In this document: piece after piece, positions 2,712-32,000 of the stretch | Layout of the letters: each line of letters opens with the position of its first letter | How positions within the stretch are numbered: position 1 is the stretch's first letter | NCBI RefSeq assembly: GCF_000284115.1 | Contig: NC_017080.1 | Location: 3,300,001 to 3,332,000 of the forward strand | Length of the DNA stretch: 32,000 bases | Direction: 5' to 3' | Origin: Phycisphaera mikurensis NBRC 102666 | Lineage (GTDB): Bacteria > Planctomycetota > Phycisphaerae > Phycisphaerales > Phycisphaeraceae | Program-made: the position numbers and the translations under genes | Notes under the pieces: generated by a model | What the model saw: the letters and a program-made list of their open reading frames with translations, nothing else | Database searches by the model: none | What the model was told of the DNA's origin: nothing

Positions 2712-2757
2712 CCGCGGACCGTTGGCCGGAACGCCCGGCTCGGCCCGCGGTCCGCGG
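2712..2757. repeat. 46-nt palindromic element, copy A (CCGCGGACCG-N26-CGGTCCGCGG)
   Basis: ccgcggaccg at 2712-2721 and cggtccgcgg at 2748-2757, perfect 10-bp arms and a 26-nt interior. Lies between the convergent 3' ends of aqpZ and the MOSC gene. Confidence 0.85.
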
Positions 2758-2768
2758 GAGCGGCACGC

Positions 2769-3431
2769 TCACGCGCTGAACTTCGTCTCCCGCCAGAGCC
2801 GCGAGAGCTGCGGGCAGGCCGTGAGGAAGGGGGCGGCCTCGGCCCGGGCGGCGCGGTCGTGGAGCAGAGCCGTCAGCCGCGCGATCGTCCACGCCGGCAG
2901 CGGCCGCTCGCGGAGGCCGAGCGCATCGCCCGAGGCGACCACCCCGGGGCTGAGCACGCGGACGTACCAGCCGAGCCGACCGGTCTCGGCCGCGCGGCGC
3001 GCGAGCTCGGGCCGGTTCCAGCGGCGGCACAGCTTCCAGCAGGGCTCGCGCGGCTGGCTCACCTCCACGAGGGCCGAGCCGACGGCGAACACGTCGCCGA
3101 GGCAGACGGTCCGCTCGTCGAGCCCGCCGACCGTCCAGTTCTCGCCGAAGGCCGCCGGCGGGAAGCGGATGCCGTCGTCCTCCGCCCAGGCCCGGTAGTG
3201 GTCGGCGGCGTAGAGCAACGCCGCGCGATCGGGCCCCCCGTGCACCTCCAGGTCGGCCTGCCCGTCCCCGTCAAGCCCGTCGGTCCGCAGCGACACGGGG
3301 CCGCTCACGCGGCGCTTCGTGAAGCCGCTGGTCCAGGGCTTGCCGGCCGGGTCGTGCACGGACGGCACGCCCACCGACTGCTGCAGGATCCGCGGCTCGT
3401 CGTCGGGCTGGAGCGCCGTCATGGATCTCAC
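2769..3431 (-). CDS. MOSC domain-containing protein (YiiM-like)
   Basis: LEVHGGPDRAALLYAADHYRAW...GENWTVGGLDERTVCLGDVFAVGSALVEVSQPREPCWKL fits the MOSC beta-barrel with its conserved Cys. A GTG start at 3431 overlaps the urtE stop as GTGA; an alternative ATG is at 3422. Confidence 0.8.
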   Translation of the reverse strand: MRSMTALQPDDEPRILQQSVGVPSVHDPAGKPWTSGFTKRRVSGPVSLRTDGLDGDGQADLEVHGGPDRAALLYAADHYRAWAEDDGIRFPPAAFGENWTVGGLDERTVCLGDVFAVGSALVEVSQPREPCWKLCRRWNRPELARRAAETGRLGWYVRVLSPGVVASGDALGLRERPLPAWTIARLTALLHDRAARAEAAPFLTACPQLSRLWRETKFSA

Positions 3432-4117
3432 ACCGACAGGTGCCGGGCGAGCGACGCCTCGTCGACGTCGGCCCGGGCGTCTTCGCGGACGAGCCGGCCG
3501 GACTCCATCATGAAGATCCGGTCCGCCACGTCCAGGGCGAAGCTGAGCACCTGCTCGCTCACGACGATCGACAGCCCCAGCCGCTCCTTCACGTCGTTGA
3601 GCATGCGGGCCATGTCCTTGATGATCGAAGGCTGGATCCCCTCGGTGGGCTCGTCGAGCAGGAGGACCTTGGGCCTGGTGACCAGCGCCCGGGCGATGGC
3701 CAGCTGCTGCTGCTGCCCGCCGGAGAGGTTGCCGCCCTTGCGCTTCCGCATCTCCTTGAGCACCGGGAAGATTTCGTAGATTTCTTTGGGGACCTTCCGC
3801 GTGCCGTGCGCCTCCAGCCCGGTGCGGATGTTCTCCTCCACGCTGAGCGTCGAGAAGATCTGCCGCCCCTGCGGCACGTAGGCGAGGCCGTGTTTCACGC
3901 GTCGGTGCGGCGGCAGGTTCGCGACCTCGGTCCCGTCGATCGCGACGCTCCCGCCGCCGCCGGGCAGCAGCCCGATGAGCCCTTTAATGAGCGTGGTCTT
4001 GCCCATCCCGTTCCGCCCCATCAGGGCGACGGTCTGCTTGGGCTGCACGGCGAAGCCGAGGCCGTGGACGACCTCGCTCTGGCCGTAGGCGACGGTGAGG
4101 TTCTGGACGTTGAGCAT
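3428..4117 (-). CDS. urtE: Urea/short-chain-amide ABC transporter, ATP-binding subunit UrtE
   Basis: Walker A GRNGMGKTT, signature LSGGQQQQLAIARAL and Walker B LLLDEP; branched-chain-type ABC ATPase placed last in a urtABCDE-order cluster. Confidence 0.9.
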   Translation of the reverse strand: MLNVQNLTVAYGQSEVVHGLGFAVQPKQTVALMGRNGMGKTTLIKGLIGLLPGGGGSVAIDGTEVANLPPHRRVKHGLAYVPQGRQIFSTLSVEENIRTGLEAHGTRKVPKEIYEIFPVLKEMRKRKGGNLSGGQQQQLAIARALVTRPKVLLLDEPTEGIQPSIIKDMARMLNDVKERLGLSIVVSEQVLSFALDVADRIFMMESGRLVREDARADVDEASLARHLSV

Positions 4118-4238
4118 GGTGGCTTCAGGGTGGATCTTCGAACGGGCCGGGCCGCTGGGCAGAAGAAGGCGAGCCGCAGACGGACGGAGATGAACGCGGA
4201 CGGACGCGGACGCACGCTTCTCTTGGGTCCCGTCGGGC

Positions 4239-4985
4239 TCAGTGCCCCAGGTAGACCTCGATGACCTTCGGGTCGGTCTCGACCTTCTCCATCGAGCCCT
4301 CGGCGAGGACTTTGCCCTGGTGCATGACGGTGACCTTGTCCGCGATCTCCCGGACGAAGTTCATGTCGTGCTCGATCACGATCACCGAGCGGCCCTTGGC
4401 GATGCGGCGGAGCAGGTGGGCGGTCAGCTCGCGCTCCCGCACGCTCATGCCGGCCACGGGCTCGTCGAGCAGGACGAGCTTGGGGTCGGCGATGAGCAGC
4501 ATGCCGATCTCCAGCCACTGCTTCTGGCCGTGGCTGAGCAACCCCGCCTCTTCGTCGAGGTGCGCGTCGAGGTGGATCTCCCGGGCGACCTCGTGGACCT
4601 TCTGCTCCACCGCCGCGTCGCGCTTGAAGAACAGCGAGCCCCAGACCCCGCGGCCACGGGGGAAGCTCACCTCCAGGTTCTCGAACACCGTGAGCGCCCC
4701 GTAGATCGAGGGCGTCTGGAACTTGCGGCCCACGCCGCCGCGGACGATCCGCTGCTCGGGCAGCTTCGAGAGCTCCTGGTTGTAGAAGCGGACGCTGCCG
4801 CCGGTGGGCCGCGTCTTCCCGCAGATGAGGTCCAGCAGCGTGGTCTTCCCGGCTCCGTTGGGCCCGATCACCACGCGTAGCTCCCCCTCGTCGACGTAGA
4901 GCGAGACCTTGTCGACGGCCTTGAAGCCGTCGAAGGAGACGGTGAGGTTCTCGATGGCGAGGGCGAAGGTGGTGTCCAGCGGCAT
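4239..4985 (-). CDS. urtD: Urea/short-chain-amide ABC transporter, ATP-binding subunit UrtD
   Basis: Walker A GPNGAGKTT, LSHGQKQWLEIGMLL and LVLLDEP; sits upstream of urtE and downstream of the two permeases. Confidence 0.9.
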   Translation of the reverse strand: MPLDTTFALAIENLTVSFDGFKAVDKVSLYVDEGELRVVIGPNGAGKTTLLDLICGKTRPTGGSVRFYNQELSKLPEQRIVRGGVGRKFQTPSIYGALTVFENLEVSFPRGRGVWGSLFFKRDAAVEQKVHEVAREIHLDAHLDEEAGLLSHGQKQWLEIGMLLIADPKLVLLDEPVAGMSVRERELTAHLLRRIAKGRSVIVIEHDMNFVREIADKVTVMHQGKVLAEGSMEKVETDPKVIEVYLGH

Positions 4986-5030
4986 GGCGGAGGGTGGGGA
5001 AGAGACGGAGGAGAAGGCAGCCGTCGGGGC

Positions 5031-6233
5031 TCAAGCTCGCGTGGGGGCCGCGGACGGCGTGGGTTCGGGCACGGAAGCGGGGTCGGTCCGCGGCGCGGCC
5101 TCGGCGTCCGGCTTGCCGCCGAGGCCCGTGAGCCGGCCGAGCTTGGCGCCGGCCTGCGTGACGATGCCGGCGATGCCGCTGGGGAACAGCAGCGTGACCG
5201 CGATGAAGATCGCCCCCATCGCGAAGTACCAGAGCGCCGGGAACTCCTCGGAGAACCAGGTGCGGGCCCAGCTGATCAGCAGCGTCCCGAAGACGGCCCC
5301 GGTGAGGCTCATCCGACCGCCCACGGCGCAGAAGATCACCATGTAGATGCTCGGCTCGATCGTCACGAGCATCGGGCTGATCATGCCGGTGTTGAGCACG
5401 AACATCGCGCCGCCGAGGGCGGAGAAGGCGGCGGCCACGCAGAAGACGAAGGTCTTGAAGCTGGCGACGTCGTAGCCGGAGAAGCGGACGCGGTCCTCGC
5501 TGTCCCGCACCGCCACCAGCAGCCGGCCGAGCTTGCTGGAGAGGATCCACCGGCCGAGCAGCACCGTGCCGAGCAGGAAGACGACGGTGGCGAAGTACAG
5601 CGTGTTCTGCGCCCCCGGCGTCCGGATGTCCCAGCCGAGCATCGTCCGCAGGTCGGTGATCCCGTTGATGCCGCCGGTCCAGCCCTGCCGCGTCACGAAG
5701 AGCAGCTGCATCAGCCAGCACAGGGCCTGGGTGATGATCGCGAAGTACACGCCGCTCACGCGGCGCTTGAACATCGCGGTGCCCAGCAGGTAGGCGAGCA
5801 GCGTGGGGACCGCGAAGACCAGCACGAGCGTGAGCGGGAAGCTCTTGAAGGGGATCCAGAACCACGGCAGCTCCGTGATCTGGTTCCAGTCCATGAAGTC
5901 CGGCAGCCCCGCGGTCGTCAGCGCGTTGATCTGGTCGGTGCCCGACTCGGCCGCGATGTTGCCGGCCGCCTCGAGCTTCAGGAAGGCCGCGAGGCAGTAG
6001 CCGCCGAGGCCCCAGAAGACTCCCTGCCCCAGGCTCAGCACGCCGCCGTAGCCCCAGCAGAGCACCAGGCCCACCGCGACGAAGGCCAGCGAGAGGTACT
6101 TCGCCGCCATGTTCAGCCGGAAGGCGTCGAGCCACAGCGGCATCGCCAGCAGCAGCAGCGCCGCCAGCGCGGCGAAGGCCACGAGCCCGGCGTTGGAGCC
6201 GAAGAATCGGAATCGGATCTCGGAAGCGTTCAA
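5031..6233 (-). CDS. urtC: Urea/short-chain-amide ABC transporter permease UrtC
   Basis: 400-aa polytopic membrane protein of the LivM/UrtC type. The low-complexity Pro/Ala tail (last ~25 aa) is encoded by palindromic element copy H. Confidence 0.88.
   Translation of the reverse strand: MNASEIRFRFFGSNAGLVAFAALAALLLLAMPLWLDAFRLNMAAKYLSLAFVAVGLVLCWGYGGVLSLGQGVFWGLGGYCLAAFLKLEAAGNIAAESGTDQINALTTAGLPDFMDWNQITELPWFWIPFKSFPLTLVLVFAVPTLLAYLLGTAMFKRRVSGVYFAIITQALCWLMQLLFVTRQGWTGGINGITDLRTMLGWDIRTPGAQNTLYFATVVFLLGTVLLGRWILSSKLGRLLVAVRDSEDRVRFSGYDVASFKTFVFCVAAAFSALGGAMFVLNTGMISPMLVTIEPSIYMVIFCAVGGRMSLTGAVFGTLLISWARTWFSEEFPALWYFAMGAIFIAVTLLFPSGIAGIVTQAGAKLGRLTGLGGKPDAEAAPRTDPASVPEPTPSAAPTRA
5048..5093. 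repeat. 46-nt palindromic element, copy H (inside the 3' end of urtC)
   Basis: ccgcggacgg at 5048-5057 (one mismatch) and cggtccgcgg at 5084-5093, with a 26-nt interior. Confidence 0.8.
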
Positions 6234-6297
6234 GGGGTTCTCTATCGCGACAGGAGGACCCGGGCCGCTTGGCCCGGGCGGGAGCGTTCGGGGCTTC

Positions 6298-7248
6298 TCA
6301 ACGCCGGATCTTCGCCTTCACGAGCCCCTGCGGCCGCAGCAGCAGGATGCCCATCACGATCAGCAGCACGTACACCTTCGCCAGCACGCCCGAGAGGAAG
6401 AACTCGAGGATCGACTGCGTCTGCGCGATCGTGAAGGCCGCGAGGATCGTGCCCAGGATGCTGCCCGCCCCGCCGAAGACCACGATGATGAAGGTGTCGA
6501 CGATGTACAGCTTGCCGGCGTCGGGCGACACCGAGCCGATGGTCGTGAACGCCGCCCCGGCGACGCCGGCGATGCCGCAACCCAGCGCGAAGGTCATGCG
6601 GTCGGTCCGCTTGGTGTTGATGCCCGCCGCGTCGGCCATCGGCCGGTTCGCCACCGTCGCCCGCACCCGCAGGCCGTAGCGCGAGCGGAAGAGCAGGAAG
6701 TAGACCAGCCCCGTCACGAACGCCGCGAGGACGAGCATGAACATCCCGTTGATCGGGATGTCGACCATGTCGGTGACGGCCCAGGAGCCCATCAGCCAGT
6801 CGGGCATCACCGCCGAGTCCTCGCGGGCTCCGAAGCCCGAGCGGAAGCTCTGCTGCATGATCATCCCCAGCCCCCAGGTCGCGAGCAGGGTGTCCAGCGG
6901 GCGCTGGTAGAGCCAGCGGATGAGCGTGATCTCGACGAAGTAGCCCAGGGCACCGGCGACGAGAAAGGCCAGCACGATGGCGACCGGGAAGTAGTACGGC
7001 AGCGCCCACTCGGCGCTGCCGACCACGGAGTTGGAGACGAACACGGTGGTGTACGCGCCGAGCGTGAGGAACTCGCCGTGGGCCATGTTGATGACCTTCA
7101 TCTGGCCGAAGATGATCGCCAGGCCCAGGGCCATCAGCAGGAACACCGCGAACATGGAGAGCCCGTTGAAGCTCTGCATCATGAAGATCGCCTGGAGCTC
7201 CTCCGCGGAGTAGCCCTCGAACATGCTGAAGACGGCGAGCGTGGTCAT
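6298..7248 (-). CDS. urtB: Urea/short-chain-amide ABC transporter permease UrtB
   Basis: 316-aa LivH/UrtB-type permease (GLAIIFGQMKVINMAHGEF motif) between urtA and urtC. Confidence 0.9.
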   Translation of the reverse strand: MTTLAVFSMFEGYSAEELQAIFMMQSFNGLSMFAVFLLMALGLAIIFGQMKVINMAHGEFLTLGAYTTVFVSNSVVGSAEWALPYYFPVAIVLAFLVAGALGYFVEITLIRWLYQRPLDTLLATWGLGMIMQQSFRSGFGAREDSAVMPDWLMGSWAVTDMVDIPINGMFMLVLAAFVTGLVYFLLFRSRYGLRVRATVANRPMADAAGINTKRTDRMTFALGCGIAGVAGAAFTTIGSVSPDAGKLYIVDTFIIVVFGGAGSILGTILAAFTIAQTQSILEFFLSGVLAKVYVLLIVMGILLLRPQGLVKAKIRR

Positions 7249-7315
7249 CGTGATCTCGATCGGGCGTGGCCGCGTCGCGGCCGGGTGGAAGCGCGACGGC
7301 CCCGGTGGGGGGCGG

Positions 7316-7361
7316 CCGCGGATCGTCGACGGAAACCCATCGAACCGGCGACGGTCCGCGG
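7316..7361. repeat. 46-nt palindromic element, copy B (urtA-urtB intergenic)
   Basis: ccgcggatcg at 7316-7325 (one mismatch) and cggtccgcgg at 7352-7361. The stem extends by tcg/cga, identical to copy C. Confidence 0.85.
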
Positions 7362-7374
7362 GTTCGACGGCCGC

Positions 7375-8646
7375 TTACTGGTAACCCTCGGGGAAGGGGT
7401 TGGGCTCGATGAGCTCGTCGCTCTCGGCGAGGACCTTGAACTGGCCGTCGGGCATCATCTCGCCGATGCGGGCCTTGCTCCAGAGGTGGTGGTTCTCGTG
7501 GATGCGGACGTAGCCCTCGGGCGCGTTGTCCATCTCGATGCCCGGCGAGGCCGCGGCGATCTTGTCGATGTCGAAGCTGCCGGCCTTCTCGACCGTCTTC
7601 TTCCACAGCCACGGGCCCAGGTAGGCGGCCTGCGTCACGTCGCCGATCACCGAGTCGTCGCCCCAGCGCTCCTTGAACGCCGCGACGAAGGCCTTGTTCG
7701 CCGGGTTGTCCAGGCTCTGGAAGTACTTCATGCAGGCGTAGAAGCCCGCGACGTTCTCGCCGCCGATGCCGAGGATCTCGTCCTCGGTGGTGGAGATCGT
7801 CAGCAGGATCTGGCCGCGCTTGGCGAGGCTGTCGCCGGTGATGCCGGCCGCGTTGAGCTGCTTGTACCAGCTCACGTTGGAGCCGCCGACGACGATCGAG
7901 TAGATGCAGTCGGGCTTCTTGAGCTTCACCTTGTTGATGAGGCTGCCGAAGTTGGTGTGGCCCAGCGGGTAGTACTCCTCGCCGACGACCTTGCAGCCCT
8001 TGAGGTAGCGCTCGATGTGGAAGCGCGCGATCTTGTTGCTCGTCCGCGGCCAGATGTAGTCCGAGCCGATGAGGAAGAAGGTCTTGGCGCCCTTCTCGGT
8101 GTGCGCCCAGTCGAGGCCCCAGATGATCTGCTGCGTGGCCTCCTGGCCGGTGTAGATGACGTTCTTGCTGGCCTCGAGGCCCTCGTAGAACGTGGGGTAG
8201 TACAGCATGCCGTTCTCCTTCTCGAAGATCGGCAGCACGGCCTTCCGCGAGGCGGAGGTCCAGCAACCGAAGACGGTGCCGACCTTGTCGGAGATGAGCA
8301 GCTTCTTGGCCTTCTCCGCGAAGGTCGGCCAGTCGCTGGCGCCGTCCTCCTGGATGATCTCGATCTGCCGGCCGAGCACGCCGCCCTGGGCGTTGATCTG
8401 CTCGATCGCCAGGCGCTCGGCCTCCACCGAGCCGGTCTCGGAGATGGCCATCGTGCCGGTGACCGAGTGCAGCTGACCCACCGTGACGGTGTCGTCGGTG
8501 ACCATGAGGCCGGTGGTGTTGACCTCGCTCGTCGGGTACTCCTCGAGCATCGGGTTGGCGGCGAGCGCGGCCGGCGCGGCGGCGACGCTGAGCATCGCGG
8601 CGCCGAGCAGGCGGCGGAGGGAGGATCTGGCGGTGTGGGTCGTCAT
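7375..8646 (-). CDS. urtA: Urea/short-chain-amide ABC transporter substrate-binding protein UrtA (FmdD-like)
   Basis: 423 aa with an N-terminal signal (SLRRLLGAAMLSVAAAPAALA), then VGQLHSVTGTMAISE...INAQGGVLGRQIE..., typical of the UrtA/amide-binding periplasmic protein family. Confidence 0.9.
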   Translation of the reverse strand: MTTHTARSSLRRLLGAAMLSVAAAPAALAANPMLEEYPTSEVNTTGLMVTDDTVTVGQLHSVTGTMAISETGSVEAERLAIEQINAQGGVLGRQIEIIQEDGASDWPTFAEKAKKLLISDKVGTVFGCWTSASRKAVLPIFEKENGMLYYPTFYEGLEASKNVIYTGQEATQQIIWGLDWAHTEKGAKTFFLIGSDYIWPRTSNKIARFHIERYLKGCKVVGEEYYPLGHTNFGSLINKVKLKKPDCIYSIVVGGSNVSWYKQLNAAGITGDSLAKRGQILLTISTTEDEILGIGGENVAGFYACMKYFQSLDNPANKAFVAAFKERWGDDSVIGDVTQAAYLGPWLWKKTVEKAGSFDIDKIAAASPGIEMDNAPEGYVRIHENHHLWSKARIGEMMPDGQFKVLAESDELIEPNPFPEGYQ

Positions 8647-8749
8647 GGAGGTCTTCTCAGGAGCGGGCGGAAACGGAGCGGATCGGGCGCAGAGCGTCCG
8701 GGACGCGGCGGGGTGCCGCGCCTCTTGGGGGAGGAGGTTGCAAGGAGCG

Positions 8750-9073
8750 TCAGCCGTGCTCGATCACCCAGGGCCGCGGCCCGCGGGAGGCCGTGGGCAC
8801 GCCGCGGCCGGTGGTCTCGCTGAGGGGCACGCGGCCGGCGCCGTGCTTGTGGCTGCAGCCCGAGCCGCAGACGTGCGGTGCGTGGGCCGACTTCTCGTTG
8901 CGGTCGTGGGCGGTGATCTGGCTCGGGGCCATCTTCCGGGTCATCGGCGACGCGAAGAGGCGCGTGGCGTCGGCGCCGCACCGGGGACAGGCGCACTTCG
9001 CGCCGCTCCTCGCGATCGGGCGTTGCACCTCGAAGGTGCCGTGTGCGGGGCAGTCGAAGTCGTAACGCGGCAT
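8750..9073 (-). CDS. fmdB: FmdB-family zinc-ribbon putative regulatory protein
   Basis: Internal ATG at 9073 gives MPRYDFDCPAHGTFEVQRPIARSGAKCACPRCGADATRLF, the FmdB/CxxC_CxxC_SSSS zinc-ribbon pattern. Lies immediately downstream of the formamidase gene, as in the Methylophilus fmd locus. Confidence 0.75.
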   Translation of the reverse strand: MPRYDFDCPAHGTFEVQRPIARSGAKCACPRCGADATRLFASPMTRKMAPSQITAHDRNEKSAHAPHVCGSGCSHKHGAGRVPLSETTGRGVPTASRGPRPWVIEHG

Positions 9074-9113
9074 GGCAGGCTCGGGGGTGGGTCGGGGGAG
9101 GACTTCGAAACGA

Positions 9114-10337: not shown

Positions 10338-10390
10338 GGGCGGGTTGCGGAGAAAGCAGGCGGGCGGGAGGGACGGTTCCGCCGGAGTGA

Positions 10391-10407
10391 TGCGAGCGTC
10401 GTGCCAG
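10391..10407 (-). promoter_or_regulatory. Candidate sigma-54 (-24/-12) promoter for the fmdA-urt operon
   Basis: The minus strand reads CTGGCACGACGCTCGCA, versus consensus YTGGCACGRNNNTTGCW. There is one mismatch and the GG-to-GC spacing is exact. It lies about 54 nt upstream of the fmdA ATG. Confidence 0.5.
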
Positions 10408-10474
10408 AAGACGGCGGAGCCCGGAAAAACGTCCATCCGGCCCACAGGAGCGTTTTGCCGTCGCGTCATGCGGC

Positions 10475-10490
10475 GGAAACGAGGGTTTCC
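10475..10490. promoter_or_regulatory. Palindrome GGAAAC-N4-GTTTCC upstream of the sigma-54 promoter (possible enhancer-binding-protein site)
   Basis: ggaaacgagggtttcc at 10475-10490. Further GGAAA(AA)CG half-sites occur at 10423-10431 and 10516-10523, in the locally AT-richer divergent intergenic region. Confidence 0.3.
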
Positions 10491-10617
10491 CTTAATCCGC
10501 CAGGGAGAGCTCGTTGGAAACGTAAGCGCATCTAAGAGGCTTCGCCCCGGCGGCTGCGCGCTTTGCGCGCGTCGGGCCGCTCCGCACTCTCTACGCGGCA
10601 ACAGGTACTTTGTGGGG

Positions 10618-11556: not shown

Positions 11557-11720
11557 CAGGCCGCTGCAGAACCCCATCGGGGCTGCGAGCGGGCAGAATC
11601 GCGTCTCGCTTCGTCGAGCGTAACCCACGTAGTAGACGGCTACGCGGGTCCCGCTCTCCTCGCGAGACACGATTCTGCCGCGCTCTCGCCTGACGCGAGG
11701 TTCTGCAGCGGCCTGCTAGC
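11552..11720. repeat. 169-nt long imperfect inverted repeat (rod-like hairpin); MITE-like element, structured RNA or bidirectional terminator
   Basis: Perfect 22-bp outer stem: gctagcaggccgctgcagaacc at 11552-11573 pairs with ggttctgcagcggcctgctagc at 11699-11720. Inside are a 13x13-nt internal loop, further stems (gcagaatc/gattctgc; acccacgtag/ctacgcgggt) and a 7-nt apical loop at 11633-11639. Confidence 0.8.
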
Positions 11721-11786
11721 GCACCGTGCGCCGAGGACGAGGCGCCCACCCGGGAGGACGTCCCGGCGTGATCCGGTCGCGGAGCG

Positions 11787-11832
11787 CCGCGGACCGCCGG
11801 CGGAATCGGCGCTTGCCGCCCGCAATCCGCGG
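11787..11832. repeat. 46-nt palindromic element, copy F (degenerate right arm)
   Basis: ccgcggaccg at 11787-11796 and caatccgcgg at 11823-11832 (two mismatches), with a 26-nt interior. It ends 2 nt before the stop codon of the 11835..12509 gene. Confidence 0.65.
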
Positions 11833-11834
11833 TT

Positions 11835-12509: not shown

Positions 12510-12581
12510 GGGCAGAGATTACGGGGCCGGGGCCGGCAGCCGGCGGCGGCGGGCGGCGTGCGGGGCCCGCGTCCGGAGGCC

Positions 12582-13241: not shown

Positions 13242-13370
13242 GGCCTGCTCTATAGGCAGCGCCGCCGGACGCCGGCGAAGCCGCGCTCGCCGCGCGGAAG
13301 CAGCAGCCGCCTTCTCGATCCGCGAGCGCGGCACCGACCGAACCGGCAGCGGGGATGCGGCGTAAGGTTG

Positions 13371-13393
13371 TTGCAACTACATTTGTCGCAACC
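13371..13393 (+). promoter_or_regulatory. Candidate MarR operator/promoter motif, copy 1 (TTGCAAC-N7-GTCGCAACC)
   Basis: ttgcaactacatttgtcgcaacc ends 28 nt upstream of the dioxygenase ATG. A near-identical 23-mer lies upstream of the MarR gene (15042-15064). Confidence 0.45.
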
Positions 13394-13420
13394 ATTCCTT
13401 GACCGACCCGAGACGCTCCC

Positions 13421-21371: not shown

Positions 21372-21417
21372 CCGCGGACCGTCGCCGATCGGGCGGGCCG
21401 GGGCCGACGGTCCGCGG
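21372..21417. repeat. 46-nt palindromic element, copy C
   Basis: ccgcggaccg at 21372-21381 and cggtccgcgg at 21408-21417. The stem extends to 13-14 bp (..tcg/cga..). It lies 15 nt upstream of the 21357 start, in the divergent region before topA. Confidence 0.85.
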
Positions 21418-24408: not shown

Positions 24409-24454
24409 CCGCGGACCGAGGCCCTCAGGCGGCTCGGAGCCCCGCGGTCCGCGG
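24409..24454. repeat. 46-nt palindromic element, copy D (topA-hsdM intergenic)
   Basis: ccgcggaccg at 24409-24418 and cggtccgcgg at 24445-24454, perfect arms and a 26-nt interior. Begins 10 nt after the topA stop. Confidence 0.85.
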
Positions 24455-24485: not shown

Positions 24486-26147
24486 ATGCCCGCGACCGAA
24501 CACGCTTTCCTCCGCGAGCTCGACGCCAAGCTCTGGGCCGCCGCCGACAAGCTGCGGAACAACCTCGACGCCGCCCAGTACAAGCACGCCGTCCTGGGGC
24601 TGATCTTCCTGAAGTACGTCTCCGACGCCTTCGACGCCCGCCGCGAGCGGGTGCTCGCCGACCTGCGCGACCCGGACAGCGAGTCCTTCTACCCCGACGC
24701 CACCGAAGAGGACCTGCACGCCGAGCTGGAGGACAGAGACCACTACACCGCCGCGAACACCTTCTGGGTCCCCCCGCTGGCCCGCTGGCAGAACCTCCAG
24801 AGCTGGGCCAAGCTGCCGCCGCAGACGACCGTGGAGGTGAAGAATGGCAAGACGGAGAAGTACACGATCAAGAGCACCGCGCTGCTCATCGACGACGCCC
24901 TCGCCGCCGTCGAGCACGAGAACGAGCCGCTCAAGAACGTCCTCGCCCGCGACACCTACGCCCGCCTGCAGTTGGATCCCGCCAATCTGCGCGGCCTGAT
25001 CGACCTGGTCGCCGGCATCCCCTTCACCCACGACCGCCTGCAGGCCCGGGACATCCTCGGCCACGTGTACGAGTACTTCCTGGGCCAGTTCGCCTTGGCG
25101 GAGGGCAAGAAGGGCGGCCAGTACTTCACGCCGAAGAGCATCGTCGGCCTCATCGTCGAGATGCTGCAGCCGTACTGGGGCCGCGTCTACGACCCGGCGA
25201 TGGGCAGCGGCGGCTTCTTCGTCGAGATCGAGAAGCACGTGGAGCGGGCCTACGACGAACGCACCCACGGCGCTTCCGGGGGGATCAGCGTCTACGGGCA
25301 GGAGAGCAACCCCACCACCTGGCGGCTGGCCGCGATGAACATGGCCATCCGCGGCATCGACTTCAACTTCGGCAAGACGTGGGCGAACAGCTTCACGCAG
25401 GACCAGCACCCCGACCTGCGGGCCGACTTCGTGATGGCCAACCCGCCGTTCAACGTGAGCGACTGGTGGGACGCCAAGCTCGCCGACGACCCGCGCTGGA
25501 CGCACGGCACGCCGCCCAAGGGCAACGCGAACTTCGCCTGGGTGCAGCACATGCTCCACCACCTGGCCCCCACCGGCAGCATGGCCCTGCTGCTGGCCAA
25601 CGGCAGCATGTCCGGCACGTCCGGCGGCGAGGGCGACATCCGCCGCGCCCTCGTCGAGGCCGACCTGGTCGAGTGCATGGTCGCCCTGCCCGGCCAGCTG
25701 TTTACCAACACGCAGATCCCCGCGTGCATCTGGTTCCTCACGAAGGACAAGGCGGCGCGGAACGGCAAACGCGACCGCCGCGGCGAGGTGCTCTTTCTCG
25801 ACGCCCGCGGCGTCGGCTACATGAAGGACCGCGTGCTGCGCGACTTCACCCGTGAAGACATCCAGAAGCTCGCCGGCACCTTCCACGCCTGGCAAGGCTT
25901 GGGCGACGACGAGTACGCCGACATCCCCGGCTTCTGCAAGTCAGCGACGCTAGCCGAGATCGCCGCCCAGGGCTTCGTGCTGACTCCCGGCCGCTACGTC
26001 GGTGTCGCCGCGGCGGAGGACGACGGCGAGCCCTTCGCCGAGAAGATGGCCCGCCTGACGGCCGAGCTGAGCGGGCAGTTCGAGGAGTCCGCTGCGCTGG
26101 AGGCGAAGATCCGGCGGAACCTGGAGGGGGTGGGATATGAGGTCTGA
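24486..26147 (+). CDS. hsdM: Type I restriction-modification system, DNA methyltransferase subunit M
   Basis: HsdM N-terminal domain (LWAAADKLRNNLDAAQYKHAVLGLIFLKYVSD), AdoMet motif (VYDPAMGSGGFF) and catalytic NPPF (FVMANPPFNVSDW). Confidence 0.95.
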   Translation: MPATEHAFLRELDAKLWAAADKLRNNLDAAQYKHAVLGLIFLKYVSDAFDARRERVLADLRDPDSESFYPDATEEDLHAELEDRDHYTAANTFWVPPLARWQNLQSWAKLPPQTTVEVKNGKTEKYTIKSTALLIDDALAAVEHENEPLKNVLARDTYARLQLDPANLRGLIDLVAGIPFTHDRLQARDILGHVYEYFLGQFALAEGKKGGQYFTPKSIVGLIVEMLQPYWGRVYDPAMGSGGFFVEIEKHVERAYDERTHGASGGISVYGQESNPTTWRLAAMNMAIRGIDFNFGKTWANSFTQDQHPDLRADFVMANPPFNVSDWWDAKLADDPRWTHGTPPKGNANFAWVQHMLHHLAPTGSMALLLANGSMSGTSGGEGDIRRALVEADLVECMVALPGQLFTNTQIPACIWFLTKDKAARNGKRDRRGEVLFLDARGVGYMKDRVLRDFTREDIQKLAGTFHAWQGLGDDEYADIPGFCKSATLAEIAAQGFVLTPGRYVGVAAAEDDGEPFAEKMARLTAELSGQFEESAALEAKIRRNLEGVGYEV

Positions 26148-27498
26148 TGTGTCAGCATGGACGCCGCGGCGCCTCGCCGACTGTGCGACATGGATCTCCG
26201 GGGGTACGCCTTCAAAGAAGAATCGAGATTACTGGGACGGCGACATCCCTTGGGTATCTGCCAAAGACATGAAGTCATTCAGGCTTCACGACAGCGTGGA
26301 CCACATCACGGAGCGAGCCGTAGACGATGGAGCGAAGCTCGTTCCGCGCGACTCCATCCTGCTTCTCGTCCGCGGCATGACGTTGAACAACGACGTCCCG
26401 ATCTGCATGACGGATCGGCAGATGGCGCTCAACCAGGACCTGAAGGCGCTATTGCCTGCTGATGACGTCGACGCTCACTTCCTCGCGTACTGGCTGCTCG
26501 CGAACAAGCCCCAGCTGCTTTCTTCGGTCGAACATGCGGGACACGGCACCGGCAAGCTAGCGACGCCCGTTTTGCAATCGATGCAGATCGCTCTCCCCCC
26601 GCTCTCCGAGCAGCGGGCGATCGCGGCGGTGTTGGGGTCGCTGGATGACAAGATCGCGTTGAACCGTCGGATGAACCGGACGCTGGAATCGCTGGCCCGG
26701 GCGTGGTTCCAGAGCTGGTTCGTCGACTTCGACCCCGTCCACGCGAACGCCGCCGGCCGGCCGACCCTCCCCCCCGACCTCGCCGCCCTCTTCCCCGCCA
26801 CCTTCACCCCCTCCCCCCTCGGCGACATCCCGGAGGGCTGGGAGGTGAAGCCCGTCGGCGACATCGTCGACTGCGTCGGCGGCGGCACGCCGAGCACGAA
26901 GAACGACGACTACTGGGAGGGCGGCACGCACCACTGGGCGACGCCAAAGGACCTGTCGTCGCTCGACGCCCCGATCCTTACGACGACGAACCGGAAGCTG
27001 ACCGACGCCGGCGTCGGCAAGGTCTCGTCTGGCCTGCTGGAACGCGGCACCGTCCTCATGTCATCCCGAGCCCCCGTCGGCTACCTCGCCATCGCCGACG
27101 TGCCGGTCGCCGTCAACCAGGGCTTTATCGCCATGAAGCCGACCGATGCGATGCCGGCGTCGTTCCTGCTGAACTGGTGCCAGCACAACATGGAGACCAT
27201 CAAGAGCCAGGCCGGCGGCACGACCTTCGCCGAGATCAGCAAGAAGGCCTTCCGCCCGATCCCGATGCTCGTCCCGCCGCCCGGCGTCGCGTCCCGCTTC
27301 GCAGAAATCGTCGGCCCGATGTACGCCCGAATTACGCTGAACGTCCGCGAGAGCGAGACGCTCGCCGCCCTCCGTGACGCCCTGCTGCCTCGCTTGCTCT
27401 CCGGCGAGCTGCCCGCACCCGCGGACCGTGACGATCTTCCGCCCGTGGAGCCCACGGTCCGCGGCAACCCCGGCCGGTCGCCGGTGGCCCCCGCCTGA
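26137..27498 (+). CDS. hsdS: Type I restriction-modification system, specificity subunit S
   Basis: Two target-recognition domains separated by conserved helices (LSEQRAIAAVLGSLDDKIALNRRMNRTLESLARAWFQSWFVDFDPV; C-terminal ETLAALRDALLPRLLSGEL). Overlaps hsdM by 11 nt. The 27-aa tail after SGEL is encoded by palindromic copy G. Confidence 0.92.
   Translation: MRSDVSAWTPRRLADCATWISGGTPSKKNRDYWDGDIPWVSAKDMKSFRLHDSVDHITERAVDDGAKLVPRDSILLLVRGMTLNNDVPICMTDRQMALNQDLKALLPADDVDAHFLAYWLLANKPQLLSSVEHAGHGTGKLATPVLQSMQIALPPLSEQRAIAAVLGSLDDKIALNRRMNRTLESLARAWFQSWFVDFDPVHANAAGRPTLPPDLAALFPATFTPSPLGDIPEGWEVKPVGDIVDCVGGGTPSTKNDDYWEGGTHHWATPKDLSSLDAPILTTTNRKLTDAGVGKVSSGLLERGTVLMSSRAPVGYLAIADVPVAVNQGFIAMKPTDAMPASFLLNWCQHNMETIKSQAGGTTFAEISKKAFRPIPMLVPPPGVASRFAEIVGPMYARITLNVRESETLAALRDALLPRLLSGELPAPADRDDLPPVEPTVRGNPGRSPVAPA
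27419..27464. repeat. 46-nt palindromic element, copy G (inside the 3' end of hsdS, just upstream of darT)
   Basis: ccgcggaccg at 27419-27428 and cggtccgcgg at 27455-27464. The stem extends to 12 bp (..tg/ca..), with a 26-nt interior between the 10-bp arms. Confidence 0.85.
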
Positions 27499-28139
27499 TG
27501 GCCGCCTATTCCGCCGAGCGCGCGCAGATCTTTCGGTTGACCCACCGGGACAACCTGCCGTGGATCCTGGAGCACGGGCTGCACTGCCCGACAAGCGACA
27601 CGCTGGACCCCGGCTTCGTCGCAATCGGGCGGGAGGAGATCATCGACCGCCGCACCCGCCACGAGGTTTCGTGCGGGCCCGGCGGGGTGCTCGCGGACTA
27701 CGTGCCGTTCTACTTCACCCCGCGGTCGATCATGGCGTTCAACATCCGCACCGGGTTCCACGGGCTGACGCAGCGTGACAACGACGACCTCGTGGTGCTG
27801 GTGTCGTCCATCCCCCGCCTGCTGGAGATGTCCATCGGCTTCGTGTTCTACAGCGGGCAAGCGATGCTGCACGAGAGCACCTGCCACGCCGACGCCGCGG
27901 ACCTGACGAAGATCGACTGGGCCCTGCTCAACGCGGCCGACTTCCGCAACGATCCGGAGGACCCGGGGAAGAAGGGGCGGTACCAGGCGGAGGCGCTGGT
28001 CCACCGCCACACGCCGGTGGAGGCCTTGCTCGGCGTCGGGTGCTACAGTCCGAAGGTGGCGCACGAGGTGGATCTCCTCGTGCAGCGAAGCGGCAGGGAT
28101 CTCGCCGTCAAGCCCGCGCCGAAGCTGTTTTTCCGATGA
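27498..28139 (+). CDS. darT: DarT, ssDNA thymidine ADP-ribosyltransferase toxin (DUF4433 family)
   Basis: 213 aa. IFRLTHRDNLPWILEHGL, GGVLADYVPFYFTPRSIMAF and GRYQAEALVHRHTPVEALLGVGCYS parallel the conserved DarT blocks as I remember them from Thermus DarT, including the catalytic Glu in QAE.LV. The ATG shares one base with the hsdS stop (TGATG). Confidence 0.85.
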   Translation: MAAYSAERAQIFRLTHRDNLPWILEHGLHCPTSDTLDPGFVAIGREEIIDRRTRHEVSCGPGGVLADYVPFYFTPRSIMAFNIRTGFHGLTQRDNDDLVVLVSSIPRLLEMSIGFVFYSGQAMLHESTCHADAADLTKIDWALLNAADFRNDPEDPGKKGRYQAEALVHRHTPVEALLGVGCYSPKVAHEVDLLVQRSGRDLAVKPAPKLFFR

Positions 28140-29200
28140 TCCACGCCACGGATGGCAATCTCCTTGAAGCGGACGCGGAAGCGCTCGTGAACACGGTCAA
28201 CACCGTGGGCGTGATGGGCAAGGGCATCGCCCTGATGTTCAAGGAACGCTTCCCGGAGAACTTCCGGCGCTACGCCGCCGCCTGCAAGCGGGAGGAGGTC
28301 CAGACCGGGCGCGTCTTCGCGGTGGCCAACGAGGAGCTGGCCGGGCCACACTGGATCTACAACTTCCCGACGAAGCGGCACTGGCGGTCGCCCTCCCGGC
28401 TGGAGTGGATCGACGAGGGCCTCGCCGACCTGGCGTGGCTGCTGCGCGAGCACAGGGTCGCCTCGGTCGCGGTCCCGCCCCTTGGGGCCGGCAACGGCGG
28501 GCTGAAGTGGGCGGACGTCCGGCCGCTGGTGGAGCGACACCTCGGCAGCCTGCCCGGGGTCGACGTGCTGCTGTACGAGCCGACGCAGGCGTACCAGAAC
28601 GTCTCGAAGACGACCGGCAAGGAGCGGCTCACGCTGGCGCGGGCGCTGGTCGCGGAGATGGTCCGCCGCTACGGGGTGCTCGGGCTGGACTGCTCGATCC
28701 TCGAGATCCAGAAGCTCGCTTGGGTGCTGCAGCGTCAGATCCGGCAGTTGGGCTTGGATGACCCGTTGGAGCTTGACTTCAAGGCCAACCGCTACGGCCC
28801 CTATTCCGACCGCCTCCGTCACCTCCTCGACGCCCTCGACGGGAGCTGGCTGCGGAGCGAGAAGCGGCTTGCCGATGCCGAACCCCCGGACACGATCCGC
28901 TTCGCGCCCGGTCGGGAGCGAAAGCTCGGCGAGTGGTTCGGTGCGGGGCAAGGCTTCCACTACCGAGAAGCCGTGGAGGCGACCGACGCCTTGATCGATG
29001 GCTTCCAGTCGCCGCTGGGCCTGGAGGCGCTCGCCACGGTGGGGTGGCTCCTCGACGAGGAAGGGGTGGAGCCGAGCCTCGCGGCGGTGCGTGAGGGCAT
29101 CGCTCGCTGGCCTGCGGGGCCCGCCGCGGCCGAGCGGAAGGCGGGGCTGTTCGGCGATCACCTGCTCGAGGCCGCCATCCGGCGGTACACGCACCCGTGA
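28136..29200 (+). CDS. darG: DarG, macrodomain DNA ADP-ribosyl glycohydrolase antitoxin
   Basis: ATG at 28136 overlaps the darT stop (ATGA). N-terminal macrodomain (DAEALVNTVNTVGVMGKGIALMFKERFP; IYNFPTKRHWRSPS) plus a ~200-aa C-terminal domain, the DarG architecture. Confidence 0.85.
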   Translation: MIHATDGNLLEADAEALVNTVNTVGVMGKGIALMFKERFPENFRRYAAACKREEVQTGRVFAVANEELAGPHWIYNFPTKRHWRSPSRLEWIDEGLADLAWLLREHRVASVAVPPLGAGNGGLKWADVRPLVERHLGSLPGVDVLLYEPTQAYQNVSKTTGKERLTLARALVAEMVRRYGVLGLDCSILEIQKLAWVLQRQIRQLGLDDPLELDFKANRYGPYSDRLRHLLDALDGSWLRSEKRLADAEPPDTIRFAPGRERKLGEWFGAGQGFHYREAVEATDALIDGFQSPLGLEALATVGWLLDEEGVEPSLAAVREGIARWPAGPAAAERKAGLFGDHLLEAAIRRYTHP

Positions 29201-29211
29201 GCGAGAACCCG

Positions 29212-29257
29212 CCGCGGACCGTGCGTGGCTGCGGCCGTTGCGGCCGGTGGTCTGCGG
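29212..29257. repeat. 46-nt palindromic element, copy E (darG-hsdR intergenic)
   Basis: ccgcggaccg at 29212-29221 and tggtctgcgg at 29248-29257. Both right-arm substitutions still allow G-U pairs in a plus-strand RNA. 26-nt interior. Confidence 0.75.
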
Positions 29258-29288
29258 GGGTGCGAGGGCTCCCGCAGCAGGAGAACGA

Positions 29289-32000
29289 GTGATCAACGAG
29301 GACGCCGTCGAGCAGAAGGCTCTTCGCTGGTTCCAGGACACCGGCTGGGCGTACCTCCACGGGTCGGAGCTGGCCCCGGACGTGGCGCCCGAGCAGCGGG
29401 CGGACGGAAAGGCGGTGGTGCTGGCCGGGCGGCTGGCGGAGGCGGTGCGGCGGCTGAACCCGCAGCTGCCGGCCGAGGCGGTGGAGGAGGTGGTGCGGGC
29501 GGCAACGCAGCGGGAGCACCCGGACCTCGCCCGGGCCAACGCGGCGTTCCACCGGAGGATGATCGACGGGGTGCCCGTCCGCTTCGAGGATCCTTCCACC
29601 GGCGAGAAGGTCCAGGACGTGGCCCGGCTGGTGGACTTCGGCGGAGCCGCGAACAACGACTGGCTGGTGGTGAACCAGCTGGCGATCGCGGGAACCAAGG
29701 ACGGGCGGCGGCCGGACGTAATCGCCTATCTCAATGGCCTGCCGATCGCGGTGATCGAGCTGAAGAACCCGGCGGACGAAAAGGCCGACGTGTGGGCGGC
29801 GTACCGGCAGCTGCAGACCTACAAGGACGAGATCGGCGAGCTGTTCGTCCGCAACGCGGCGCTGGTGGTGAGCGACGGGATCACGGCGCGGGTCGGGTCG
29901 CTGACGGCGAGCCCCGAGTGGTTCCTGCCGTGGCGGGCGGTGAGCGGCGAGGCGGACCAGCCCAAGGTGGAGATGGAGCTGGAGCGGGTCGTCCGCGGGT
30001 TCTTCCGGCCGGACCTCCTGCTGGACTACCTGCGGCACTTCATCCTGTTCGAGGGCGAAGAAGACGTCGTGAAGAAGATCGCTGGATACCACCAGTTCCA
30101 CGGGGTGCGGGCGGCGGTGGAGGCGACGGTGGTCGCCGCGGACCGCGGCGTGGAAACGGCTCCGGGCGACGCGGTCCGCGAGCGGCCGGCGGCGGACTGG
30201 GGGCGGCGGGTGCCGCGGGGCAGCGGGAAGGCGGGCGTCTTCTGGCACACGCAGGGCTCGGGCAAAAGCATTTCCATGGCCATGTACGCGGGCAAGCTGA
30301 TGCAGCAGCCGGCGATGAACAACCCGACCCTGGTGGTGGTCACCGACCGCCTTGACCTCGACGGGCAGCTGTTCGCGCAGTTCGCGGCGGCGAAGTCGCT
30401 GCTGGGCGAGAAGCCCGACCAGGCGGAGAGCCGGGAGCAGCTGCGCGACTACCTCGACGGCCGGGCCAGCGGCGGGATCGTGTTCACGACGGTGCAAAAG
30501 TTCGCGCCGCTGGACGGGGAGGAGGCGCACCCGGTGCTGAGCGGGCGGAGCAACGTCGTCGTGATCAGCGACGAGGCGCACCGCAGCCAGTACGGGATCA
30601 AGCCGACGCTGGACAGGAAGACCGGGCGGTACGTCTACGGCTACGCCAAGCACCTCCGCGATGCCCTTTCGGGGGCGTCGTTCATCGGGTTCACGGGGAC
30701 GCCGATCAGCAGCGAGGACCGCGACACCCGCGGCGTGTTCGGCGAGTACGTGAGCGTCTACGACATCGCCGACGCCGTGGAGGACGGGGCGACGGTGCAG
30801 ATCTACTACGAGAGCCGGCGGGCGAAGCTGGACCTGAACGACGCGGAGATCGAGACGCTCAACCAACAGGTGGACGAGGTCGTCGAGGACGAGGAGACCG
30901 AGGACCGGGAGCGGACCAAGGGCCACTGGGCGCAGCTGGCGAAGCTGGTGGGGGCGCGGCCGCGGCTGGAGGCGATCGCGGACGACCTGCTGGCGCACTT
31001 CGACCAGCGGAAGGAGGCGATGGCGTCGCAGGTCGGGCCCGACGGCGGGAAGGCGATGATCGTCACGATGAGCCGGGACATCTGCGTCGCGCTCTTCGAC
31101 GAGATCGTCCGCCGGCGGCCGGAGATGGCGGGCAGCCGGAAGGACGACGGCACGTGGAACCCCGAGGACGGGTCGATCCGCGTGGTGATGACCGGCACGG
31201 CGACCGATCGGGTTGAGCTGCGGCACCACCAGCACGGCAAGGCCCAGCGCGAGCGGCTGGCCAAGCGGTTCAAGGACCCGGCCGACCCGCTGGAGCTGGT
31301 GATCGTGCGGGACATGTGGCTGACCGGCTTCGACGCGCCGTGCTGCCACACGATGTATGTGGACAAGCCGATGCGGGGGCATGCGCTGATGCAGGCGATC
31401 GCCCGGGTGAACCGGGTGTTCCGCGAGAAGGCGGGCGGGCTGGTGGTCGACTACATCGGGATCGCCAACGAGCTGAAGCAGGCGCTCAAGACGTACACGG
31501 AGAGCAAGGGGCGTGGCCAGCCGACGGTGCGGGCGGAGGACGGGCTTCGCATCCTGAAGGAGAAGGTGGGCGTTCTGCGGGACATGATGCGGGAGAACGG
31601 CGGCTTCGCGTACGCGGGCTTCGAGACGCAGCCGTTGGAGCTGCTGCCGGGGGTGACGAACCACCTCCTCGGGCTCGACGACGGCAAGCGGCGCTTCCTG
31701 GACGTGATGGCCTCGGTGCTGAAGGCGTTCAGCCTGTGCGCCACGCTGGACGAGGCGGCGGCGCTGCGGACGGAGATCGCGTTCTTCTCGGCCGTCCGCG
31801 GCGTGCTCGCCAAGCACGGGCAGGAAGAGCCGAAGCGTGGCGGCGCGGACAAGAGCGCATCGCTCAAGCTGATCCTGGACAACGCGGTGGTGAGCGAGGG
31901 CGTGGACGACATCTTCGCGATGGCGGGGCTGGAGCGGCCGGACATCGGGCTGCTGAGCGAGGGGTTCCTCGAGGACGTGCGGCGGATGCCGGCGAAGAAC
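29289..32000 (+). CDS. hsdR: Type I restriction-modification system, endonuclease/translocase subunit R (3' end outside the window)
   Basis: The frame is open from GTG 29289 (AGGAG 5 nt upstream) to the window end, so it is absent from the ORF track. My hand translation gives VINEDAVEQKALRWFQDTGWAYL..., a nuclease-domain-like segment (PDVIAYLNGLPIAVIELK) and helicase motifs (WHTQGSGKS, VVISDEAHRSQ, FIGFTGTP, MWLTGFDAP). Confidence 0.93.
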   Translation, partial: MINEDAVEQKALRWFQDTGWAYLHGSELAPDVAPEQRADGKAVVLAGRLAEAVRRLNPQLPAEAVEEVVRAATQREHPDLARANAAFHRRMIDGVPVRFEDPSTGEKVQDVARLVDFGGAANNDWLVVNQLAIAGTKDGRRPDVIAYLNGLPIAVIELKNPADEKADVWAAYRQLQTYKDEIGELFVRNAALVVSDGITARVGSLTASPEWFLPWRAVSGEADQPKVEMELERVVRGFFRPDLLLDYLRHFILFEGEEDVVKKIAGYHQFHGVRAAVEATVVAADRGVETAPGDAVRERPAADWGRRVPRGSGKAGVFWHTQGSGKSISMAMYAGKLMQQPAMNNPTLVVVTDRLDLDGQLFAQFAAAKSLLGEKPDQAESREQLRDYLDGRASGGIVFTTVQKFAPLDGEEAHPVLSGRSNVVVISDEAHRSQYGIKPTLDRKTGRYVYGYAKHLRDALSGASFIGFTGTPISSEDRDTRGVFGEYVSVYDIADAVEDGATVQIYYESRRAKLDLNDAEIETLNQQVDEVVEDEETEDRERTKGHWAQLAKLVGARPRLEAIADDLLAHFDQRKEAMASQVGPDGGKAMIVTMSRDICVALFDEIVRRRPEMAGSRKDDGTWNPEDGSIRVVMTGTATDRVELRHHQHGKAQRERLAKRFKDPADPLELVIVRDMWLTGFDAPCCHTMYVDKPMRGHALMQAIARVNRVFREKAGGLVVDYIGIANELKQALKTYTESKGRGQPTVRAEDGLRILKEKVGVLRDMMRENGGFAYAGFETQPLELLPGVTNHLLGLDDGKRRFLDVMASVLKAFSLCATLDEAAALRTEIAFFSAVRGVLAKHGQEEPKRGGADKSASLKLILDNAVVSEGVDDIFAMAGLERPDIGLLSEGFLEDVRRMPAKN
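30136..30181. repeat. 46-nt palindromic element, copy I (in frame inside hsdR)
   Basis: ccgcggaccg at 30136-30145 and cggtccgcga at 30172-30181 (one terminal mismatch), with a 26-nt interior. Encodes AADRGVETAPGDAVRE just upstream of the Walker A motif. Confidence 0.8.

Follow-up and report, generated by a model that had tools for sequence, protein, structure and literature searches.

A lineage-specific family of 46-nucleotide REP-like palindromes with fixed arms and a variable interior in Phycisphaera mikurensis and its close relatives

Small palindromic repeats influence how stable mRNAs are, in what ratio the genes of an operon are expressed, where recombination is frequent and how proteins evolve, and they have been studied almost only in Proteobacteria. 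The repetitive extragenic palindromic (REP) sequences and the REPINs are short, G+C-rich and hairpin-forming, occur in hundreds to thousands of copies, combine a conserved stem with a variable apical part, show no target-site duplication and are occasionally found in frame within genes (PMC3733652, PMC3116915). REPs exist in planctomycetes other than the one studied here, and REPs with long, variable, self-complementary loops as well as intragenic in-frame REPs are documented (PMC3733652). In the systems tested, a GTAG foot is needed for cleavage by the REP-associated tyrosine transposases (RAYTs) (PMC8266576). Class 3 TnpA-Y1 'REPtron-like' systems, known from Planctomycetes and Acidobacteria and mainly from the former, have atypical hairpins in up to ~600 copies per genome (Quentin et al. 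2018, PMC6006769). Phycisphaera mikurensis is absent from the published REP/RAYT surveys. Here we analyse a 32,000-nt stretch of its genome (strain NBRC 102666, contig NC_017080.1, positions 3,300,001 to 3,332,000; the window), which holds nine copies of a 46-nt palindrome, CCGCGGACCG-N26-CGGTCCGCGG. With moderate confidence, we read it as a lineage-specific REP-like repeat derived from a hairpin archetype, inserted without duplication and then inherited, with arms that would be recognised by a protein and a probable role as a hairpin at the 3' end of mRNAs. The family extends the small-palindrome phenomenon to Phycisphaerae (Planctomycetota).

The palindrome shares with REPs and REPINs all of the features listed above and, as they do, lies mostly just downstream of genes, including between binding-protein and permease genes. 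Like the REPINs, it has two inverted conserved motifs at a fixed distance and a less conserved spacer. It differs from both in that its arms form a perfect 10-bp palindrome pair without a bulge and without a GTAG or CGTC foot, in that its copies are single rather than head-to-head dimers or clusters of the bacterial interspersed mosaic element (BIME) type, and in that its host is a planctomycete of the class Phycisphaerae; its interior is also far more diverged than in described REPIN populations. The GTAG-14 REPs of Bradyrhizobium, with long loops of the GCGG/CCGC type (Di Nocera et al. 2013, PMC3733652), likewise have a conserved stem around a long, variable, self-complementary inner region of up to 27 bp, but they carry a GTAG tag and vary in loop length, whereas the Phycisphaera element is untagged and its inner length is fixed at 26. 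The hairpins of the class 3 TnpA-Y1 systems have a CnGA foot and another sequence (Solibacter: CCGA-GCCGCGACTGTCAAGGAGCGGTTG), and no class 3 TnpA-Y1 gene was seen near any copy here. The REP of Planctomyces brasiliensis, GTAG-GGTCCGC-TCC-GCGGACC, has the 7-mer GCGGACC in common with the arms, in an inverted arrangement, which may be coincidence. An earlier note on this DNA, made from the sequence alone, had not recognised the element as a described family, and we likewise found no description of it in the literature searched.

A pattern search of the window with up to three mismatches returned nine copies (A to I, from left to right), each with 10-nt arms and exactly 26 nt between them and all at the positions given in the earlier note, where 0.07 are expected by chance and shuffled sequences gave a maximum of 2. 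The arm mismatches from A to I are 0, 1, 1, 2, 0, 0, 0, 2 and 1, so that four copies are perfect, as the earlier note had counted, three have one mismatch and two have two. When all spacings from 0 to 80 were scanned with up to two mismatches per arm, 26 was the only enriched one, with nine matches against at most one at every other spacing. Counting both strands, the window has 15 exact copies of the 10-mer, 14 of them within arm pairs and one an orphan (11051-11060, inside the plus-strand ORF 10618-11556) that has no partner at spacings up to 80 nt; this is consistent with the chance occurrence of about one that had been estimated for the 10-mer alone. The window has a G+C content of 71%, and ~0.9-1.0 at third codon positions. 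Its proteins match exactly those of P. mikurensis NBRC 102666 on contig JACHEL010000009.1 of GCA_014207395.1 and in the complete assembly of 3.8 Mb. The nine-copy observation is confirmed, and the feature is strongly non-random.

We then turned to the syntenic contigs of six related metagenomic lineages (labelled L123, L182, L183, L184-187, L188 and L189), which were fetched via proteins more than 90% identical to proteins of the window and amount, with P. mikurensis, to an unbiased set of 160 kb from seven lineages. The family is present in all six, with 40 copies in the 160 kb, most of them at gene ends. With up to two mismatches, 38 arm pairs have the spacing 26, none has 24, 25, 27 or 28, and other spacings have at most two pairs each, except for six at 19, which lie within true copies and are caused by an internal CCGCGG. 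In non-coding copies the spacer is always 26 nt. The density is one copy per 4 kb over the 160 kb and 12 per 44 kb in P. mikurensis, including three additional copies in the 8 kb upstream of the window, from which roughly 1,000 copies per genome follow if the region is typical, a number within the REP range.

Outside these lineages, a metagenome scan with the fixed spacer found 53 loci, about 35 of them from marine assemblies, chiefly ORXU01, with family-type interiors. From species-representative genomes, a variable-gap scan yielded isolated and unrelated hairpins only, in many genomes of high G+C; the spacers of arm pairs at 120 loci of unrelated high-GC genomes were distributed flatly over 16-36 nt, so that the 26-nt geometry is not general to G+C-rich DNA. 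Viral contigs gave no match to the 46-nt pattern, on which grounds a phage origin was rejected, and Rfam 15 gave no match in the window at the gathering threshold. The repeat is lineage-specific to Phycisphaera and close relatives. The 46-mer can serve as a specific metagenome marker for this lineage, and in annotation it gives rise to mis-called gene ends and to extended C-termini. Since the arms contain both a SacII site (CCGCGG) and an RsrII site (CGGWCCG), a link to restriction sites was considered and rejected: outside the elements SacII sites number 84 against 100, and RsrII sites 10 against 8.8, in the Markov expectation.

For the conservation profile, each element was split into its two half-sites, numbered inwards from the outer end. 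The information content is 1.7-2.0 bits at every one of positions 1-10 and falls off steeply at position 11, which is T or C; the next five positions, 12-16, are rich in G+C and little conserved, with G in 76% at position 13, and the centre is enriched in A+T. On the outer side, AT stands beside an arm in 27 of 77 copies, usually as GAAT or GGAT and in several cases overlapping a TGA stop codon; an outer GAAT/ATTC extension is seen in about a third of the copies. The interiors, described earlier as unrelated but partly self-complementary, turn out to be significantly similar in a fixed register, with 280 pairs differing at 11 positions or fewer in pairwise Hamming comparisons against nine in shuffles, and with the shared motifs GTTTC/GAAAC and CCGAAAC enriched 15- to 77-fold; their self-complementarity is only weak. 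Among 78 copies sampled (~1% of any one genome), the closest non-orthologous ones still differ at 6-8 of the 26 positions, and no near-identical non-orthologous copies were found. The idea that the interiors are captured spacers, as in CRISPR, was rejected, since they share a consensus.

All window copies, whose folding the earlier note had proposed as a check, fold at -25 to -36 kcal/mol, and the most central copy of the family (L188:7999) folds to a 20-bp stem with a 5-nt loop. This fold and the relatedness of the interiors point to an archetype that was a full-length 46-nt hairpin, the inner part of which would since have drifted. It is best explained as a near-perfect hairpin of roughly the form CCGCGGACCG-TCGSCG-TTTYC-loop-GRAAA-CGSCGA-CGGTCCGCGG. 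Taken over the complete structure, the share of paired cells is 73.7%, where shuffles give 71.6%. The covariation score of this structure is 0.154 against 0.124, a value reached by none of 500 shuffles, and covariation, which the note had proposed to tabulate within the interiors, is clear only at pair 11/36 (T-A and C-G; chi-square p ~0.01); shuffling of the interior only gave a mean fold z-score of -0.69.

We next compared orthologous copies, which were identified by their flanks. Of the three P. mikurensis copies found before the window, the one that lies upstream of a DEAD-box helicase gene differs from its L183 counterpart at 3 of 26 interior positions. Copy B (5048..5093; one arm mismatch) lies upstream of urtD, within the final ~20 codons of the minus-strand gene urtC (5031-6233), and differs from its orthologues L123:13667 and L182:13671 at 3-7 of 26. 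Copy C (7316..7361; one arm mismatch) stands in the spacer between urtA, with its stop at 7375, and urtB, with its start at 7248, at 13 nt past the stop, and differs from its orthologue L184:4411 at 7 of 26. Between orthologues the arms and the spacing are retained and the interior varies; over all reliable orthologues taken together, the differences amount to 5 of 100 positions in the arms and 25 of 130 in the interiors, counts that are biased, as detection needs intact arms. From these alignments we conclude that copies are inherited vertically. At the C site of L123, L182 and L183 only a remnant of the right arm is found (ATCCGCGG), the left half having been replaced by other, larger palindromes; copy C thus predates the split of all five lineages. 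At the B site, L183 is without arms, and L184 has the only length variant found (L184:6708-6774), with intact arms and a 47-nt spacer that results from a 21-nt in-frame insertion in the urtC coding tail.

The larger palindromes at L123:11302-11415 and L183:9804-9924, in the urtA-urtB spacer, span ~115-120 nt with ~30-nt arms such as CCGGTGGTTCCCCGTCCCCGACGGGG. They have no copy in the window and could represent a second family of palindromic repeats in these relatives. In the same operon, the urtD-urtE spacer of P. mikurensis comprises 121 nt without an inverted repeat of the GGATG/CATCC type, and that of L123 (14551-14806) comprises 254 nt and holds an inverted repeat of such short tandem units (GGATGATTCGGATGGGTCGGATG ... 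CATCCGATCCATCCGATCCATCCG).

The way in which new copies arise can be read from the right part of the window, where a DarT-DarG toxin-antitoxin pair is embedded in a type I restriction operon (24486-32000, continuing to L121:18019). The same five-gene module, hsdM-hsdS-darT-darG-hsdR, is found with ~80% identical DNA in an unrelated metagenomic organism of 63% G+C (L177-L181), where an AAA_25 gene and a phage-type integrase adjoin it; this makes the module a horizontally mobile defence island. The P. mikurensis island has four copies and its L177 homologue, with 79% HsdR identity, has none. Copy I (30136..30181; one arm mismatch) is part of a 75-nt insertion (~30133-30207) that adds 25 codons to hsdR in frame, relative to L177; the 25 inserted residues (VAADRGVETAPGDAVRERPAADWGRRVPRGS region) stand just upstream of the Walker A motif, and 46 of the 75 inserted nucleotides are the element, with ~29 nt further. 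Copy G (27419..27464; perfect arms) lies inside the extended 3' tail of hsdS (26137-27498), which is 54 nt longer than in L177, the TGATG stop-start overlap with darT being kept. Copy H (29212..29257) follows the stop of darG by 11 nt, within a gap of 88 nt that separates darG from hsdR; in L177 the two genes overlap. The two arm changes of copy H are both G-T on the plus strand; it is this copy, and not copy E as the earlier note had it, that preserves G-U pairing. Copy F (24409..24454; perfect arms) sits at the left edge of the island, where it follows the stop of topA by 9 nt and precedes the start of hsdM by 31 nt. Altogether, the comparison with L177 shows that copies are gained by insertion. 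Another possibility, that arms are written around pre-existing local sequence, was rejected, as the hsdR and hsdS copies are net insertions with an interior of their own, of the family type. An island that was acquired horizontally and then gained four copies, one of them in an insertion that adds 25 residues to HsdR in frame, is a dated natural experiment.

In-frame insertion into genes, with the addition of a peptide, is also known from the Rickettsia palindromic elements (RPEs), and the hsdR copy and those in the hsdS and urtC tails resemble them in this respect. RPEs differ in being 100-150 bp long and conserved over their full length; the Phycisphaera elements have 46 bp, are mostly intergenic, and their in-gene insertions are longer than the element. 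The earlier suggestion of a REP/BIME-like or RPE-like family with a conserved stem base suits the findings best and is supported in part: the copies are dispersed, hairpin-forming, concentrated at 3' ends, at times in frame within genes, and inserted with no target-site duplication, but GTAG/CGTC tags are absent and BIME-type clustering was not seen.

The insertions, the variation of presence and absence between lineages, and the fact that inverted termini are the only strongly conserved part of the element would all agree with a miniature inverted-repeat transposable element (MITE) of a DDE-type insertion sequence, the arms being its terminal inverted repeats of 10-13 bp, mobilised in trans by a full-length insertion sequence whose ends match CCGCGGACCGTCG. 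We consider this very unlikely. The second hallmark of such elements, a target-site duplication, is missing: the identity of the two flanks is at chance (14 against 9.6 for k=2, 3 against 1.2 for k=3), and AT occurs on both sides in four copies where ~3 are expected, which argues against a DDE-type MITE. In addition, 46 bp is far below the usual MITE size, the in-gene insertions measure 75 and 54 nt and not 46 plus a duplication, and no orphan arm was seen beside a transposase, the single orphan lying inside an ORF. The lack of duplication would rather suggest a single-strand (HUH-type) or other non-duplicative mechanism. Integron attC sites, which have inverted cores at the base of an imperfect hairpin, a variable centre and a position at gene 3' ends, are a further likeness. 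The differences are that the Phycisphaera element has CCGCGGACCG/CGGTCCGCGG arms and no GTTRRRY/RYYYAAC core, lies in housekeeping operons and in no cassette array, and has a fixed rather than a cassette-specific length; no integrase is encoded in the window.

The position of copies relative to genes raises the question of a role in the transcript. Distances from stop codon to element peak at 1-18 nt (31 of 52 gene ends), and in the window seven of nine copies (A, B, C, D, F, G and H) lie at or across gene 3' ends by our gene map, the same number as counted before; the exceptions are E, in a divergent promoter region, and I, inside hsdR. Copies C, F and H stand between co-directional genes, 9-13 nt past the stop. 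Copy C, between urtA and urtB, mirrors the REPs between malE and malF and between hisJ and hisQ, which are classical inter-gene positions. With most copies 1-18 nt past a stop, transcripts would carry a very stable 3' stem-loop, and we suggest that it acts, as classical REPs do, as a protector of mRNA 3' ends, a terminator without U-tract or an attenuator, urtA-urtB included. A role as a 3' hairpin in mRNA is probable on the strength of this placement; the terminator or stabiliser function proposed in the earlier note would be such a role, and against it stand the lack of a U-tract and of any strand-specific signal. In window positions 1-20000, canonical terminators with a hairpin and a T-tract number 7 against 6.2 in shuffles, all candidates being in coding sequence, and the scan picked up no copy of the palindrome; in this part the organism may rely on something other than classical intrinsic terminators.

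The same placement, the great stability of the hairpins, the location of copy C between the binding-protein and permease genes of an ABC operon (a classical site of stabilising REPs) and the absence of canonical terminators from positions 1-20000 could also be explained by a purely RNA-level signal, in which a lineage-specific RNA-binding protein or RNase reads the stem base, for 3'-end processing, termination or operon segmentation, and the sequence has spread through its usefulness. This is distinctly unlikely in our view, as a sequence identity of 20 nt cannot arise about a thousand times without copying. Nor do the copies show any preference of orientation relative to the upstream gene, and pairs that only RNA tolerates are not in excess on the sense strand (21 G-U against 18 A-C). 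Some copies lie in divergent promoter regions and in the middle of genes, and Rfam has no match. A T-richness of the sense-strand interior, seen in 17 hand-counted copies (p ~0.01), was given up when it disappeared with 40 copies (t = 0.34). Neither this measure nor the wobble count singles out one transcribed strand.

That no strand asymmetry of any kind is seen, that the interior pairs weakly and that the length is constant lead us to keep a different explanation in view, in which a strict ruler is read on DNA, either between half-sites or at the base of a cruciform. In its simplest form, a dimeric or tetrameric protein would read two inverted 10-bp half-sites, 36 bp centre to centre, on double-stranded DNA, and the host would maintain about a thousand such sites at gene boundaries for chromosome organisation, insulation or the management of replication and transcription, the hairpin potential being a by-product of symmetry. 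Such a bipartite site would account for the step-like conservation, with ten invariant base pairs followed by a near-free interior, for the absence of length variants among non-coding copies despite near-saturated substitution of the interior, and for intact arms at orthologous sites with randomised interiors. However, 36 bp corresponds by calculation to 3.4 helical turns, which places the half-sites on different faces of the helix, and the interiors descend from a full-length hairpin archetype. New copies have also appeared within genes, namely in hsdR, in a glycosyltransferase gene and in gene tails, and no use for a host site is apparent there; moreover, the density varies strongly between close lineages (one copy in 21 kb in L183, against eight in L123 and L182), as fits a selfish repeat. 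We regard the bipartite site as unlikely, though it should be kept in mind. A bolder version, which we hold to be quite improbable, is that the elements are not selfish REPs at all and that about a thousand host-maintained bipartite sites or cruciform bases are read by a Phycisphaera-specific protein with a strict 26-bp ruler that marks gene boundaries. If true, such marking, which might serve to organise the chromosome, to insulate transcription from replication or to define 3' ends, would amount to a genome-wide architectural system not known before in Planctomycetes.

Under the reading that we favour, that of a REP-like repeat of hairpin origin, copies would arise by insertion without target-site duplication and later be inherited vertically; the interior would drift while the 10-bp arms and their 26-nt distance stay fixed. 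They would stay fixed because the arms may form a 10-bp G+C clamp at the base of an extruded hairpin, which a mobilising or binding protein could read. On this account, which is the best supported, the arms and the fixed length are what matters to a mobilising enzyme, a host factor or both. The family with its geometry and distribution, the insertions and the vertical inheritance are seen directly in the sequences, and the reading of the arms by a protein, the transposition mechanism and the role in RNA are inferred from them. The invariant stem base and length around a near-free interior make the family a good natural substrate for asking what such a protein reads.

It is important to note, however, that a number of results weigh against this reading. 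A GTAG/CTAC foot occurs within 8 nt of an end in only 3 of 77 copies, with a flank logo that is a weak G-A-A-T, and since the tested RAYTs require a GTAG foot, its absence is a real difference; none of the 77 copies has at least five T within 8 nt beyond either end. Without GTAG/CGTC foot and U-tract, the element is neither a tagged REP sensu Di Nocera nor a canonical intrinsic terminator. No ORF with an HUH-Y1 motif was found in 350 kb of lineage DNA, and inspection of L160 and L145 showed no transposase between paired copies; in L160, the only contig with two copies far enough apart for a gene between them, a small membrane protein is encoded there. The balance of G-U and A-C pairs noted above carries no RNA-specific signal, the T-A content of the interior is unbiased by strand (n=40), and 2 of the 12 P. 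mikurensis copies lie in divergent promoter regions. Interior pairing in register (columns 12-21) is ~45%, barely above shuffles, and with pairing so weak the hairpin model alone leaves the constant length unexplained. The conservation of arms among orthologues is in part due to ascertainment, as a copy without intact arms goes undetected. Finally, three sets of sites (after the MOSC gene, after a 224-aa gene, and L123:7750 with its counterparts) have intact arms at the same place with 14-20 of 26 interior differences, the random level, and slightly shifted stop offsets. Such unrelated interiors at shared sites could be due to saturation under selection on the arms or to recurrent insertion at gene ends.

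The window encodes an aquaporin, a MOSC-domain protein, a formamidase with a urea-type ABC transporter operon (urtABCDE), KDPG aldolase, a PfkB kinase and topoisomerase I, followed by the hsdM-hsdS-darT-darG-hsdR island. Of the copies not yet placed, copy D (11787..11832; two arm mismatches, CAAT) lies in a convergent gap, 2 nt past the stop of gene 11835-12509 (minus strand), and L189:6884 stands at the same gene end with an unrelated interior. Copy E (21372..21417), which has perfect arms and a perfect 16-bp stem, is not at a 3' end but in the divergent region that separates topA (plus strand) from gene 20413-21357 (minus strand). The extended stem CCGTCG/CGACGG that had been assigned to copies B and C is present in C and absent from B, and the partner of C in this respect is E. 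The remaining two copies upstream of the window lie one inside the glycosyltransferase gene, the other with a compensatory ATCG...CGAT double change.

Copy A (2712..2757; perfect arms) lies between convergent genes, 11 nt past the stop of the MOSC-domain gene (2769-3431, minus strand). L123 and L182 have a copy at this site, with unrelated interiors. A synteny break adjoins the copy (window 2571-2769 compared with L123:16151-16220, L183 and L184): in P. mikurensis only, the aquaporin gene stands between copy A and the SUI1 gene, and in the relatives MOSC is followed directly by SUI1 or by other genes. Copy A stands at this break and copy F at the edge of the island, and it may be that the elements mark places where DNA was rearranged or inserted.

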